Assembly (NCBI GenBank): GCA_019912745.1
Contig: JAIOIA010000159.1
Coordinates: 1 to 53,912 of the forward strand
From: Comamonas sp.
GTDB taxonomy: Bacteria; Pseudomonadota; Gammaproteobacteria; Burkholderiales; Burkholderiaceae_C
Direction: 5' to 3'
DNA length: 53,912 nt
Below the pieces are notes generated by a model that was not told the origin of the DNA, did no database searches, and saw only the letters and a program-made list of their open reading frames with translations. Made by a program: the position numbers and the translations under genes. Below, one piece after another: positions 42,744 to 53,912 of the stretch. Every line of letters begins with the position of its first letter. The first letter of the stretch is position 1.

Positions 42744-44225
42744 CTAGCGCGGCAGCGTGGTGGTGCCCATCAGGTATTTGTCCACCGCGCGCGCCGCCTG
42801 GCGGCCTTCGCGGATGGCCCAGACCACCAGGCTCTGGCCGCGGCGCATGTCACCGGCGGCGAAGACGCCCTTGGCGTTGGTCTTGTAGCCCAGGGAATCG
42901 TCCACGCTGGCACGCGCGTTGCCACGCGCGTCGCGCTCCACGCCCAAGGCATCGAGCAGCGTGGTCGTGGGCCCGGTGAAGCCCATGGCCAGCAGCACGA
43001 GATCGGCCGGCCAGTCCTTCTCGGTGCCCGGAATTTCGGTGGGCTTGCCACCCTTGATTTCGATCTGCACGGTCTTGAGCGCCTTGACGGCGTTGCCGCG
43101 GCCGCCGCCCACGAACCCCTGGGTGGAGATGGCGAACTCGCGCTGCACGCCTTCGGCGTGGCTGTCGCTGGTGCGCAGCTTGATCGGCCAGTAGGGCCAG
43201 GTGAGTTCCTTGTTTTCTTGCAGCGGCGGCATGGGCATGAGCTCGAACTGCGTCACGCTTGTGGCGCCCTGGCGGTTGCAGGTGCCGACGCAGTCGCTGC
43301 CGGTGTCGCCCCCGCCGATCACGATGACGTGCTTGCCCTTGGCTGAAATCGCGTCCTTGACCTTGTCGCCCGCGTCAGCGCGGTTTTGCTGCGGCAGCAA
43401 TTGCATGGCGAAGTGGATGCCGCGCAGCTCGCGCCCGGGCACCGGCAGGTCGCGCGACTGTTCGGCGCCGCAGGTGAGCAGCACGGCGTCGAATTCTTCG
43501 AGCAACTGGTCGGCGGAGATCGTCTCGCGCGACAGGTTGGTGATCGTGGTGCCCACACCCTCGCTGGGCATGCCGCCCACCAGCACGCCGGTGCGAAAGC
43601 TCACGCCTTCGCCCTGCATTTGCGCGATGCGCCGGTCGATGTGCGATTTTTCGAGCTTGAAATCCGGAATGCCGTAGCGCAGCAGGCCGCCGATGCGGTC
43701 GTTCTTCTCGAACACCGTGACCTCGTGCCCCGCGCGCCCAAGCTGCTGCGCCGCCGCCAGCCCCGCAGGCCCGGAGCCGACCACCGCCACGCGCTTGCCG
43801 CTCTTGCGCGGTGCCGGTCGCGAGACCACCCAGCCCTCGGCCCAGGCACGGTCGATGATCGCGCGCTCCAGCGACTTGATGCCCACGGGCTCGCTGTTGA
43901 TGTTGAGTGTGCAGGCGACTTCGCAGGGCGCGGGGCAGATGCGGCCGGTGAACTCGGGGAAGTTGTTGGTGGAGTCGAGCACCAGAAAAGCGTTTTTCCA
44001 GTCGCCCCGGTAGACCAGATCGTTGAAATCCGGAATGATGTTGTTGACCGGGCAGCCGTTGCTGCAGAACGGGATGCCGCAGTCCATGCAGCGCGCCGCC
44101 TGCTGGCGCGCCTGCGATTCGGTCAGGGTGGTGACGAATTCGTGAAAGTGCGTGACGCGCTCGGCGACCGGCGCGTGCGGTTCCTCGACGCGGTCGAATT
44201 CCAGAAAGCCAGTGATCTTGCCCAT
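42744..44225 (-). CDS. gltD: glutamate synthase small (beta) subunit
   Basis: [61 protein letters not shown]. Confidence 0.96.
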
Positions 44226-44273: not shown

Positions 44274-49067
<4,794 letters not shown>

Positions 49068-49140
49068 GATGGACTCCGGCAATGACTGACTTGACAGTGA
49101 GGCTAACACTCGCCGAATCGCATCACAAGAACAATAAAAC

Positions 49141-49321
49141 GGGGTCAGATAACAATTAAATCCACCAGATTTACTAGCCAATTAAATAAGGGTCAGAACA
49201 ATTTGAAATGAACAAGGTCTCATCAGCGTTCAGAGGGGTCTGTCGCCGCGGTCTGAACCGGGTTCCCCGCCTGTCGGCAACGGAAATACCCGCTGTTTAT
49301 TAAATAGGGGTCAGACCAAAT
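49141..49321. repeat. AT-rich cluster of GGGTCAGA direct repeats between the Y1 transposase-like gene and gltB
   Basis: GGGGTCAGA 49141, AGGGTCAGA 49189, GGGGTCAGA 49307, degenerate GGGGTCTGT 49235; the 49189 and 49307 copies extend to ATTAAATARGGGTCAGAMCAA. Confidence 0.8.
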
Positions 49322-49979
49322 GTTGGTTGCGTGGCGGACGCCCCGGGGCGCGTGGGGCGGCCGGACGGCCGTGCGCGCCAGCGGCGCTGACGAACCCGGG
49401 CGAGCCGAAAGCCCAGCCCCCGCGGGCCGCACGGCGCAGGCGTGCCGCCTGGGCTTCGGCAATCCCGCCCGTCAGACGATCGCGCCATGCCGCTTCACGT
49501 GCAAAGGGCGTGTTGCCGAGGCTCCAGTAGGCCGGCGGGTCCGTGATCAGCGGATCGCGGCGGTGGCCGAGGTGGTGCGCGGCGCTGGTGGCTTCGGCCG
49601 TGTTGCCGCTTTGCTCCACCCAGCTCATCGCGGTCAGCAGGGGCTCGCCCGGCTCGACCGCAGCGGCGCTGAACCGTCCGTTCCACAGTGTTCCACTGCG
49701 GCCATGGCGATGGTTGAAGGCGACGACATAGCGGCGGCCGATGGTCTGCATCAGACGGGCCAGTGATTGCGGTGCGGCCGGCGTGGCCAGCAGCTGGATT
49801 TCATGGGTGCGCAGCGCGTAGGCATGCAGCTGCACGCGTTCATCCGCCAGGCCCATGCGCAGCACTTCGATCAGGCGGGCGAGGTCTTGCTCATCCATGA
49901 AGATGGCCTGCTGGTCCAGTGCGCGCTGGATCAGCAGGTGCGGCTGGCCGGCAAGGACGAGGCGGGGCAGGCGGGCCAT
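49311..49979 (-). CDS. Y1/HUH (IS200/RAYT-like) transposase homologue, apparently catalytically inactive
   Basis: MARLPR...PHLLIQR, LHAYAL, LMQTIGRRYV..FNHRHGRSGTLWNGRF match the family; the HxH position reads EIQ and the catalytic Tyr position reads W. Confidence 0.8.
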   Translation of the reverse strand: MARLPRLVLAGQPHLLIQRALDQQAIFMDEQDLARLIEVLRMGLADERVQLHAYALRTHEIQLLATPAAPQSLARLMQTIGRRYVVAFNHRHGRSGTLWNGRFSAAAVEPGEPLLTAMSWVEQSGNTAEATSAAHHLGHRRDPLITDPPAYWSLGNTPFAREAAWRDRLTGGIAEAQAARLRRAARGGWAFGSPGFVSAAGAHGRPAAPRAPGRPPRNQHLV

Positions 49980-50079
49980 GGCGCGTGGTCACGAATGCGG
50001 CCTGCCCGCCGTTTGCATGCCCTCCAGGGCGGCATGGCGGGGCCAACTGAGCGGGAACGACGAGGGCGGTAGCGCGAAC

Positions 50080-51504
50080 TCAGTCATCGAGCCCCAGCTC
50101 CTGGATCTTTCGCGTGAGGGTATTGCGGCCCATGCCCAGCCTGTGCGCTGCTTCGGCGCGATGTCCGTCGGTAAGCGCCAGCGCAGTTCGCAGCAGCTGG
50201 GTCTCGAACAGGTTGCCGAGCGTGCGCCAGAGATCACTCTCGCCGGCCTGCAGGCGCAGGCGCACTTCCTCGGCCAGCGGTTCAAGCCAATGCGCGGTCG
50301 TGGCGCTGTCGATTTGCGCGCTGCCCTCGGACGCAGGGTGCCCAAGCGCGGGCGCGACGACGTCCGGGGGCAGGTCGCCGAGCTCGATCGTTTGCGCCGG
50401 AGCCATCACGGTGAGCCAGCGGCACAGATTTTCGAGCTGGCGCACGTTGCCCGGAAAGTCGAACGCACTCAGCCGTGCGAGTGCCGCCTCGCTGATGTGC
50501 TTGGTTTCCACGCCCAGCTCGCGCGCGCTGCGGGCGAGGAAGTAGGACGTGAGCATGGGGATGTCCTCGCGGCGCTCTCGCAGCGGCGGCAGACGCAGGC
50601 GGATGACGTTCAGACGGTGATACAGGTCCTCGCGAAAGTGCCCTTCGCGCACGCGTTGCTCCAGGTTCTGGTGCGTGGCCGTGATCACGCGCGCGTCGGC
50701 CTTGAGCGGTTCCTGGCCGCCCACGCGGTAGAAGTGCCCGTCACTGAGCACGCGCAGCAGCCGCGTCTGCAGCTCCAGCGGCATGTCGCCGATTTCATCG
50801 AGAAACAGCGTGCCGCCCGCCGCCTGCTCGAAGCGCCCGCGCCGGGTGGCCTGCGCGCCGGTGAAGGCGCCGCGCTCATGACCGAACAGCTCGCTCTCGA
50901 GAAGCTCGCGCGGCACGGCGGCGGTGTTGATGGCGATGAATGGCCCGCTTGCGCGCGGGCTGTGGCGGTGCAAGGCGTGGGCGACCAGCTCCTTGCCGCT
51001 GCCGCTCTCGCCCGTGATGAGCACCGTGGTGTGGCTCAGGCTCAGTCGGCCGATGGCGCGAAACACGTCCTGCATGGCCGGGGCCTGACCCAGCATCTGC
51101 GGGATGTCCGGCGAGCCTGGGGGCGGCGTGGCGGCGCGCAGGCTTTCGTCGGCGGCGCGGCGGATCAGATCCAGCGCCCGCGAGATGTCGAAGGGCTTGG
51201 GCAGGTACTCGAAGGCACCACCCTGCAGCGCGCCGACGGCGCTGTCCAGGTCGGTATAGGCCGTCATCACGATGACGGGCAGCAGCGGCAGGCGCCGCTT
51301 GACCTCGGCCAGCAGGGCCAGGCCATTGCCGCCAGGCATGCGAATGTCGCTCACCAGCACCTGCGGCGTCTCGCCCGCTTGCAGCGCGGCCAGCACCTCG
51401 TCCGGGCCGGTGAACGCGCGCACCGGCAGGTCGCTGCGTTCGAGCGCGCGCTCGAGCACGAAGCGGATGGACTGATCGTCGTCGACGATCCAGATCGGGT
51501 GCAT
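50080..51504 (-). CDS. glnG: nitrogen regulation response regulator NtrC (NR I)
   Basis: [38 protein letters not shown]-terminal [15 protein letters not shown]; alternative start 51519. Confidence 0.95.
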
Positions 51505-51528
51505 GGCAGTTCGCGGCATGTGTGGTGC

Positions 51529-52620
51529 TCAGCGTGAGTCTGCCAGAGGCAGCAGCAGCGTGAAACGGGTCTGGCCCGGCACGCTGTCGCATTCGATGAT
51601 GCCGCCGTGCTGCTGCACGTAGGTCTGCGCCAGCGTCAGTCCCAGCCCGCTGCCGCCCGCCCGTCCGGAAACCAGCGGCTGGAAGATGCGCTCGCGAAGC
51701 GCCTGCGGCACGCCCGGACCGTTGTCCTCGACGTCGATCTGGATTGCCAGCCGGTGGCGCCTGCCCCCAAGCGTGGCCTGGCGCGCGATGCGCGTGCGCA
51801 GCACGATGCGGGCATCCCCCTGGGCGATGCGCTGACTCAGCGCTTGTGCGGCGTTGCGCACGATGTTGAGCAGTGCCTGGATCAGGCGCTCCCGGTCTCC
51901 GATCAGGTCCGGCAGCGACGCATCGTAGTCGCGCTGGATCTGAAGCCCACGCGCGAATTCGGCGAGCACCAGCATGCGCACACGCTCGCAGACTTCGTGG
52001 ATGTTCAGCCGCGCCCGGGCGGGGGCGCCCTGATGCGGAGCGAGCAGGCGGTCGACCAGCGTTTGCAGCCGGTCCACTTCGTGAATGACGACGTCGGTGT
52101 ACTCGCTGACTTCACGCGATGCGGCGTCCAGCGCCAGCAACTGCGCGGCGCCGCGAATGCCCCCCAGCGGGTTCTTGATCTCGTGGGCCAGGTTGCGCAG
52201 CAATTGCTTGTGCGCCTCGATCAGGTCGTTGGCGTGTTCCTCGCGTTCGAGCCTGGCCTGCTGCTCGGTTTCCGTCATCTCCACGAGCACAACCGGCAAA
52301 GGGCCATCGGATGGCGCCGGACTCACGCACACGTGGACCGGCAGATCGGATGATCCTGGCGGGTGAAAGTGCAGACTCGCCTGCAGGCGGCTGCTCATCA
52401 CGGTCTGGTCGGCCACGCGTTGCAGCGCTTCGCGCATGGGGGCAGGCTCGGCAAACCACTCGAACGCGTTGCTCCCGGTGAGCTTGCGTCGGGATTGGTG
52501 CAAGGCGTTTTCGAGCGCGGTGTTGACCATCAGGCAGACGCCGTCCACGCGCACCAGCGCCACGAGCGTGGCCAGCCTGTCGTAGGCTTCCTGGGTCCTG
52601 TAGTCGAACGCGGCGGTCAT
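51529..52620 (-). CDS. glnL: nitrogen regulation sensor histidine kinase NtrB (NR II)
   Basis: PAS-like N-terminus, LAHEIKNPLGGIRGAAQLL, RDYDASLP, DNGPG, GSGLGL. Confidence 0.94.
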   Translation of the reverse strand: MTAAFDYRTQEAYDRLATLVALVRVDGVCLMVNTALENALHQSRRKLTGSNAFEWFAEPAPMREALQRVADQTVMSSRLQASLHFHPPGSSDLPVHVCVSPAPSDGPLPVVLVEMTETEQQARLEREEHANDLIEAHKQLLRNLAHEIKNPLGGIRGAAQLLALDAASREVSEYTDVVIHEVDRLQTLVDRLLAPHQGAPARARLNIHEVCERVRMLVLAEFARGLQIQRDYDASLPDLIGDRERLIQALLNIVRNAAQALSQRIAQGDARIVLRTRIARQATLGGRRHRLAIQIDVEDNGPGVPQALRERIFQPLVSGRAGGSGLGLTLAQTYVQQHGGIIECDSVPGQTRFTLLLPLADSR

Positions 52621-52650
52621 GGCGGTGCGGCGCTTGCGGCCTGTGCTACC

Positions 52651-53487
52651 TCATGAGGCGAGCCAGACGCCGTCAAACACGAAACTTGCCGGACCGCTCT
52701 GGTAGACGTGGTTGTCGGCCTCGTCCCAATGGACGTGCAACTCGCCGCCCAGCAACTTGACGCGCACGCTGCGCTCGGTCCGTGCGTTCAGCACGGTCGC
52801 CACGACGACGGCCGCAGCGCCGGTGCCGCAGGCCAGCGTTTCGCCGCTGCCGCGCTCCCAGACGCGCATCTCAAGCTGCTCGCGTGAGTGCACACGCACG
52901 AACTCCACGTTCGTGCGCCGGGGAAACAGCGGGTGGCGTTCGATCTGCCGGCCGATGCCGTGAACGTCAAAGGTCGACGGGTCGTCCACGAAGATCACCG
53001 CGTGCGGATTGCCCATGCTCACGCAGCTCATGCGCCATGTCTGGCCACCGATGGCGATGGGTTGGTCGATCACGCGCTCGCCCGGCAGATCGACCGGTAT
53101 CGCTGCGGGCGCGAGCATCGGCTTGCCCATGTCCACGCGCACCTGCGTGACCTGGCCCGCGTCGATCCGCAGGTCCAGCGTCTTGATGCCGGCCTTCGTG
53201 GCGAGCGTGAGCGTGGTCTTTTGAGTCAGGCCGCGTTCGTAAACGTACTTGGCGATGCAGCGCACGGCATTGCCGCACATCTCGCCCTCGGAGCCGTCGG
53301 CGTTGAACATGCGCATGTCGAAGTCCGCCGTATCCGAGGCGCCGATGAGCACCAGCCCGTCGGCGCCGACGCCGAAATGCGGGCGCGACATCGCCACGGC
53401 CAGGGCCGGGGGATCGGCCACGAACTCATCCAGCGTGTTGACGTAGATGTAGTCGTTGCCGATGCCATGCATCTTGGTGAATTTCAT
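52651..53487 (-). CDS. dapF: diaminopimelate epimerase
   Basis: FTKMHGIGND, NADGSEGEMCGN, SMGNPH, RVWERGSGETLACGTG; both catalytic Cys present. Confidence 0.95.
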   Translation of the reverse strand: MKFTKMHGIGNDYIYVNTLDEFVADPPALAVAMSRPHFGVGADGLVLIGASDTADFDMRMFNADGSEGEMCGNAVRCIAKYVYERGLTQKTTLTLATKAGIKTLDLRIDAGQVTQVRVDMGKPMLAPAAIPVDLPGERVIDQPIAIGGQTWRMSCVSMGNPHAVIFVDDPSTFDVHGIGRQIERHPLFPRRTNVEFVRVHSREQLEMRVWERGSGETLACGTGAAAVVVATVLNARTERSVRVKLLGGELHVHWDEADNHVYQSGPASFVFDGVWLAS

Positions 53488-53501
53488 GGCGCCCTTGGGG
53501 T

Positions 53502-53912
53502 TTACATGCTGTAGTACATGTCGAATTCGATGGGATGGGTTGTCAGGCGCAGGCGCGTGACTTCGGCCATCTTCAGTTCCAAGTAGGCGTCGATCATCGC
53601 GTCCGAGAACACGCCGCCGCGGGTCAGGAAGCCGCGGTCCTTGTCAAGGTAGCCGAGCGCCTGGTCGAGGCTGTGGCACACGGTAGGCACCTTGGCATCT
53701 TCTTCCGGCGGCAGGTGGTAGAGGTCCTTGTCCATGGCTTCGCCGGGATGGATGCGGTTTTCCACACCATCGAGCCCGGCCATGAGCAGCGCGGCAAACG
53801 CCAGGTAGGGGTTGGCCAGCGGGTCCGGAAAGCGCACCTCGACGCGCCGCGCGACTGGATTGGCCACGTAGGGAATGCGGATCGAGGCCGAGCGGTTGCG
53901 CGCGCTGTAGGC
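53502..53912 (-). CDS. glnA: type I glutamine synthetase, C-terminal part (5' end outside the window)
   Basis: [32 protein letters not shown], adenylylation-site Tyr in [21 protein letters not shown]. Confidence 0.96.

Follow-up and report, generated by a model that had tools for sequence, protein, structure and literature searches.

The window analysed here is a stretch of 53,912 nucleotides of a Comamonas sp. contig (JAIOIA010000159.1). On its minus strand, an open reading frame (ORF) of 222 amino acids lies between genes that we take to be glnG (ntrC) and gltB, with a presumed gltD following (Table 1). This gene order had been given correctly in the original prediction, but the start of gltB is the TTG codon at 49067 and not position 49181. 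The GC3 of the ORF is 0.80, compared with 0.84-0.88 for its neighbours. Further upstream (51529-53912), a gene which is presumably dapF lies between the presumed glnA and glnL; in genome G006 (L272) an extra gene of ~405 amino acids, which we take to be aminotransferase-like, is also found between glnA and glnL.

Table 1. Features of the gltB upstream region and adjoining genes in the window
Feature	Coordinates	Strand	Remarks
glnG/ntrC	50080..51519	(-)	upstream neighbour, 100 bp before the ORF; specific to this lineage
TIRYT-derived Y1/HUH protein, catalytically dead	49311..49979	(-)	222 aa
Third box	49299..49323	(-)	its TGA is the stop codon of the ORF
Box 1 (distal)	49185..49205	(-)	centre 49195, ~-102 from the predicted gltB start site
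Box 2 (proximal)	49137..49157	(-)	centre 49147, ~-54; pseudo-palindrome, AT-rich flanks
gltB promoter, predicted sigma70	49100..49128	(-)	family alignment
gltB, glutamate synthase large subunit	44274..49067	(-)	TTG start 49067, GGAG 49077-49074; predicted target
gltD, glutamate synthase small subunit	42744..44225	(-)	

The ORF is open throughout and contains the motifs quoted in the original prediction, and the loss of both metal-binding histidines and of the catalytic tyrosine claimed there is confirmed. In an alignment with catalytically intact orthologues, the HUH columns read E60, I61 and Q62, the catalytic tyrosine column (Y---NP in class 2) is occupied by W120, and the NPVRAG loop has lost ~10 residues. 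The protein scores below the cut-offs of both Pfam Y1_Tnp (PF01797; 15.1 bits against 23) and NCBIfam REP_Tyr_transpos (17.5 against 80), PF01797 being matched by 20 of the 32 relatives in the protein alignment, and a PDB sequence search returned no relevant match. The AlphaFold model, calculated from a 32-row alignment, has a pLDDT of 94.4. Its top Foldseek match is TnpA-REP (4er8_A, E = 2.3e-6, TM by target 0.63), the structure against which a comparison had been suggested, and the next matches are the IS608 and ISDra2 TnpA transposases; the Y1 core fold is clear in the predicted model.

The WxxGNTPFxRE motif spans residues 152-162, and the C-terminus is a GRP AT-hook-like tail. Among the best 120 of 4324 homologues the HUH, tyrosine and NP-loop columns vary, and R3, R6, H14, Q78, W99, WxLGNTPFxRE and the GRP tail are near-invariant. 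W152, N156, T157, P158 and F159 are invariant wherever the gene is linked to gltB, are missing from 12 unlinked relatives, and form a candidate new functional surface; the residues missing in dead copies are grouped on the catalytic face. The gene has a single match in its own genome, unlike an active insertion sequence with multiple copies at varied sites.

Three TCTGACCC boxes lie 3' of the ORF, boxes 1 and 2 being 48 bp apart. The repeats reported in the original prediction are real: the pattern TCTGACCC[CT]n0-2TT[TA] has three matches in the 2.52-Mb, 81%-complete assembly, all at this locus, with minus-strand starts at 49315, 49197 and 49149. The GGGGWSAS end motif occurs beside the gene as GGGGTCAG at 49307 and 49141 and as AGGGTCAG at 49189. 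The third box is kept in three of the five gene-bearing genomes of the genus, and in several unlinked TIR-flanked relatives a box likewise overlaps the stop codon. The window holds no inverted box upstream of the ORF, unlike the two-sided inverted repeats of a TIRtron, and the three box copies of the 81%-complete assembly, all local, do not resemble the genome-wide abundant palindromes of REP/REPIN elements. No second box pair comparable to that at gltB was found elsewhere in the same genome. A fourth, degenerate half-site, ACAGACCCC, is present on the minus strand between the third box and box 1 (49232-49272) and was not seen in G001.

The predicted gltB promoter consists of a -35 element TTGTGA (49128-49123), a 17-bp spacer, and a TGn with the -10 element TAGCCT (49105-49100). 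It is called from the family alignment; a simple consensus promoter scan of 48900-53912 listed none. Two sub-threshold Rfam matches in 48900-50200 were taken as chance.

The distribution of the gene was examined by a census anchored on gltB rather than on the transposase-derived gene. gltB is present in 149 of the 151 family genomes and all 149 loci were examined; four are cut by contig ends, leaving 145 evaluable. In 139 of these the gene precedes gltB at the same site and in the same orientation, which supports its vertical retention. One of these 139 copies (L256) is split. The idea of an invertible switch was discarded, as none of them is flipped. At the level of the order, 13 of 20 matches hand-picked from 64 rows also lie beside gltB, and the other seven are gltB-unlinked, catalytically intact, without the GNTPF motif and mostly flanked on either side by inverted ends. 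A gene that we take to be dgt-like runs directly into gltB in four other families, and a dgt-like gene precedes the transposase-derived gene in 38 of the 139 loci, which together suggest that a single ancient insertion took place between dgt and gltB. The distances in the gene tree and in the gltB tree are correlated (rho 0.56; 200 permutations reach at most 0.09), although the gene tree shares only six of 140 splits with the gltB-fragment tree, itself poorly resolved. The AU test does not reject a single gltB-linked clade (p-AU 0.79).

Catalytic death is not a family-defining trait, because 73 of the 139 gltB-linked copies keep HUH and tyrosine; 47 lack both, 10 lack only the tyrosine and nine only HUH. 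Catalysis was lost more than once, as had been anticipated: placing the dead copies in one clade is rejected (p-AU 0.025; 17 rows vs 22), and the catalytic states change at least 13 times on a rough tree, the counts of 13 and 23 state changes being approximate because the gltB-fragment tree is poorly resolved. Selection was estimated with a Nei-Gojobori script. Within the genus, all 10 pairs have a dN/dS of 0.09-0.22, for the core and the C-terminal part alike, and across pairs with dS < 1.5 the median is 0.22 for dead-dead (14 pairs) and 0.16 for intact-intact comparisons (32 pairs). The terminal branches of dead copies are about twice as long as those of intact ones (0.53 vs 0.25). Dead copies evolve faster than intact copies, yet not neutrally. 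A functionless, decaying transposon relic could account for these longer branches, for the scores below the Pfam and NCBIfam cut-offs and for the single split copy, but we consider it most improbable: it is already refuted at sequence level by the dN/dS values within the genus, the frames are open across dead lineages, and columns invariant among the best 120 of 4324 homologues are accompanied by a fixed box geometry. The purifying selection foreseen by the original prediction is therefore observed, and the neutral decay that it named as the opposite outcome is not.

This geometry was followed across the family. The spacing between boxes 1 and 2 is 47-50 bp in all 99 loci where the pattern, which allowed ~44-56 bp, found both, and 133 of 148 loci have a TTG-17-TAnnnT promoter positioned +19 to +21 after box 2. 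The centre of box 2 is fixed across 132 loci, with a strong right half in 104, both halves strong in nine, the left only in eight and neither in 11; judged from this DNA pattern, box 2 appears to behave as a dyad. Four gene-bearing loci fall below zero on the box matrix, each with box 2 in flipped orientation or with a strong box 1. At four loci (L161, L164, L186, L206) the gene and gltB are separated by 0.5-1.1 kb, yet the boxes remain beside gltB. The median score of box 2 is lower in doubly dead lineages (28.9 vs 39.5, kin not being independent).

Alternatively, the protein may still act on the boxes as its ancestors did, as single-stranded or hairpin DNA, and in a structural role (topology, replication or local repair) rather than as a classical regulator; intact lineages would nick or stabilize the unwound promoter and dead ones would only bind it. 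We regard this as improbable. The retention of HUH and tyrosine in 73 of 139 copies would be in line with such an activity, as would the fate of the inverted upstream box, which is kept in 53 of 137 census orthologues and survives in 46 of 72 intact but only four of 46 doubly dead copies. The latter link is, however, not significant on independent pairs, where kinship is handled (median p 1). The two ends are also more alike within a genome than across genomes (5.4 vs 4.4 of 8 nt, relatedness not controlled). Against this possibility, the gene is inverted in none of the 139 loci, most boxes have one strong half only and so make no good hairpin, and dead copies are still conserved.

A coupling between gene and boxes is seen in genomes in which the gene has moved or is missing. 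Six census genomes lack it at gltB. Two of them, G166 and G046, have a dead, GNTP-containing orthologue at another place, where it has no boxes, and both boxes stay at gltB (box-pair scores of 20 and 47, respectively). The boxes are absent from all eight gltB-bearing family genomes without an orthologue, four from the census and four genus-mates, whose box-pair scores are -22 to -45, the best of 60 shuffles reaching -3.3; these eight represent at most five events, and four of the assemblies are incomplete or fragmented. One of the eight, G043, carries TIRtron-type copies, all of them unlinked. The gene is also missing from G007 (a complete genome of the same genus), G065 and G131, the three genomes in which gltB had no match. 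The association of gene and repeats put forward in the original prediction is thus upheld, the boxes staying where the gene has moved (2/2) and being absent where it is absent (8/8).

In the four gene-less genus-mates the entire gltB promoter region differs, so that there the loss of the boxes could be due to rearrangement alone. Their loci (L273 = G002:C6, L031-L034) have the order glnA-glnL-glnG-glnK-amtB-gltB with a sigma54-type site before gltB, and their gltB is 72-74% identical to that of the window; the gltB cluster was possibly replaced. In G043 (C1, 1.274-1.280 Mb; L275, L277, L278), an intact TIR-flanked relative is found and, at a distance of 2 kb, a second copy that is split; both lie among repeated membrane-protein-like ORFs. 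A box-like site at G000:C229:5085-5106, in the region between the divergent genes rppH and proS, partly coincides with the predicted ribosome-binding site of rppH; it was rejected as a target, being kept in all nine genus-mates, five of them without the gene.

A further reading is that the boxes serve another host factor or form an RNA polymerase UP element, with the gene kept for an unrelated task and its adjacency to gltB historical. The AT-rich right flank of box 2 does lie in the UP-element zone, the promoter holds another conserved site (the PhaR-like element below, in 90 of 125 spacers), and the high expression of the likely B. cenocepacia orthologue described below could suit a general DNA-binding role. 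We nevertheless judge this explanation quite improbable, as it is opposed by the absence of boxes in all eight gene-less genomes and their presence in both genomes with a moved gene, by the lack of the gene in all three genomes without gltB, and by the lack of a comparable box pair elsewhere in the Comamonas genome.

The PhaR-like sequence TGCRNYGCA (the PhaR site consensus of PMC6201568) lies between -35 and -10 in 90 of 125 family gltB spacers (e.g., L135, L138, L139) and once in the control window; it is absent from the Comamonas window (49106-49122). Family gltB may also answer to the PHB regulator PhaR. At 29 gene- or box-bearing loci (L137, L138, L155 and others) the -35 element and spacer also read TGGCA-N6-TTGC, of sigma54 type, so that sigma70 and sigma54 elements may overlap there.

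Published expression data were consulted for two species. In B. cenocepacia, dRNA-seq places the gltB start immediately behind the counterpart of the -10 element, as predicted, and BCAL0288, the likely orthologue, is transcribed from a start site of its own, with a mean RPKM of 935, compared with 106 for gltB (PMC4603805). The locus tags BCAL0288/0289 are confirmed in the supplement of that paper, and BCAL0288 is taken to be an orthologue from its position and length and from promoter strings that match L285. In P. phymatum under nitrogen starvation, the likely orthologue Bphy_2789, assigned from its position, is reduced (log2 -1.40, p 0.046) and gltB shows no significant change (+0.56, p 0.33) (PMC5748707); Bphy_2789 is unchanged in rpoN nodules (PMC5979394). 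These expression data do not settle activation versus repression. RNA-labelled public contigs cover the ORF, one of them spanning 49191-53912, and were set aside as expression evidence, since they show no strand, level or single transcript and may contain DNA.

The original prediction also placed the gene under Ntr control through its position behind glnG, and as a general feature this does not hold. ntrC adjoins the gene in two of 139 census loci, both from this genus, and in two of 80 named loci, and Bphy_2789 is down under nitrogen starvation and unaffected by the loss of rpoN. In this genus alone, an Ntr output by way of transcription behind glnG is an unlikely but conceivable role for the regulator. 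Here the gene stands at the end of a same-strand glnA-dapF-glnL-glnG run, 45-100 bp behind glnG, and one RNA-labelled contig reaches across this region, although such a contig shows no single transcript; co-transcription behind glnG is possible. The rarity of the ntrC adjacency and the P. phymatum data speak against such control, as does the lack of a strict sigma54 or NtrC site in 49001-53912 and upstream of glnA in G006. The supplements of the H111 ntrC paper and, apart from one file, of the Herbaspirillum Tn-seq paper contained no match.

Taken over the whole locus, the domesticated TIRYT probably binds the two end-derived boxes and regulates transcription of gltBD, a role supported by co-occurrence and geometry. 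An ancestral TIRtron would have inserted between dgt and gltB, and its right end would have become part of the gltB promoter. The protein is predicted to bind each GGGGTC/GACCCC half-site as double-stranded DNA, with the GRP tail gripping the AT-rich flanks of the boxes. From centres near -54 and -102 it would most likely help RNA polymerase; judged from the geometry, activation is slightly favoured over repression because the sites lie upstream of the core promoter rather than on it. A new contact or signal surface would be provided by WxxGNTPFxRE, which is invariant and restricted to gltB-linked copies. Cutting would be dispensable for a regulator, and would therefore have been lost in several lineages, including that of the Comamonas window. 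Observations that count against the regulator reading include the retention of HUH and tyrosine in 73 of 139 copies, which a pure regulator would not need, and the weaker boxes of doubly dead lineages. Of the domestication originally proposed, vertical retention, purifying selection, repeated catalytic loss and the gene-box link stand, and Ntr wiring as a general feature does not. We give about even chances to the fuller picture of a whole branch of Burkholderiales whose glutamate synthase has come under a hitherto unrecognised class of transcription factor, an HUH single-strand transposase turned duplex-DNA regulator, reading its own former ends in the gltB promoter in trans and passing a signal to RNA polymerase, or sensing a metabolite, by way of a newly evolved WxxGNTPFxRE surface.

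If correct, this would name a missing regulator of a central step of ammonia assimilation in widely studied betaproteobacteria and add an HUH case to TldR-like domestication. The host role of domesticated RAYT/TIRYT proteins is posed as an open question in PMC3733652, PMC6006769 and 10.1101/119735. With a single gene, a single target promoter and two defined sites, and with intact, dead, relocated and lost variants occurring naturally, the present clade makes that question directly testable.

The protein and its repeats belong to the described TIRYT/TIRtron family, and only the gltB-locked arrangement is undescribed. TIRYTs are characterized by the GGGGWSAS end motif and by HUH and tyrosine in all members aligned (Di Nocera et al. 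2013, PMC3733652), and largely correspond to TnpA-Y1 subclass 2.1 (Quentin et al. 2018, PMC6006769) and RAYT group 1 (Bertels et al., 10.1101/119735); a placement in subclass 2.1/2.1.1 is suggested by the motif and the unlinked relatives. Like them, the window protein combines a Y1 fold and a long C-terminal extension; its boxes fit GGGGWSAS, one of them overlapping the stop codon, and the closest unlinked relatives of the gltB-linked gene have inverted ends on both sides. Unlike them, it lacks HUH, the tyrosine and an upstream inverted end, is confined to one fixed locus, where two direct boxes lie in the gltB promoter, and has the extra WxxGNTPFxRE motif. The accessible text of the TIRYT (PMC3733652) and subclass (PMC6006769) papers does not mention glutamate, and our literature search, with subscription papers and bioRxiv supplements outside it, found no paper on the gltB-linked clade.

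The best structural match, E. coli TnpA-REP/RAYT (PDB 4er8), is likewise a single-copy domesticated HUH protein. It is an active single-stranded DNA nuclease on GTAG hairpins, of which the genome holds many copies. The window protein differs in being dead, in having three local non-REP boxes and in its REP_Tyr_transpos score of 17.5 vs 80. As for glutamate synthase itself, GltC and Lrp are known regulators of gltBD. NtrC and ArgR act on it in some Proteobacteria, and the accessible part of the same source names no transposase-derived regulator (PMC5343134). The two boxes resemble the operators of these four regulators in lying upstream of the glutamate synthase promoter, and both the fold and the sites are unrelated to theirs. 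The nearest parallel in concept is TldR, the nuclease-dead TnpB repressors (10.1101/2023.11.30.569447), where a transposon nuclease has also repeatedly lost catalysis and become a transcription factor; TldR is TnpB-derived and RNA-guided, whereas the window protein is of the HUH/Y1 type and is predicted to read its own former ends.
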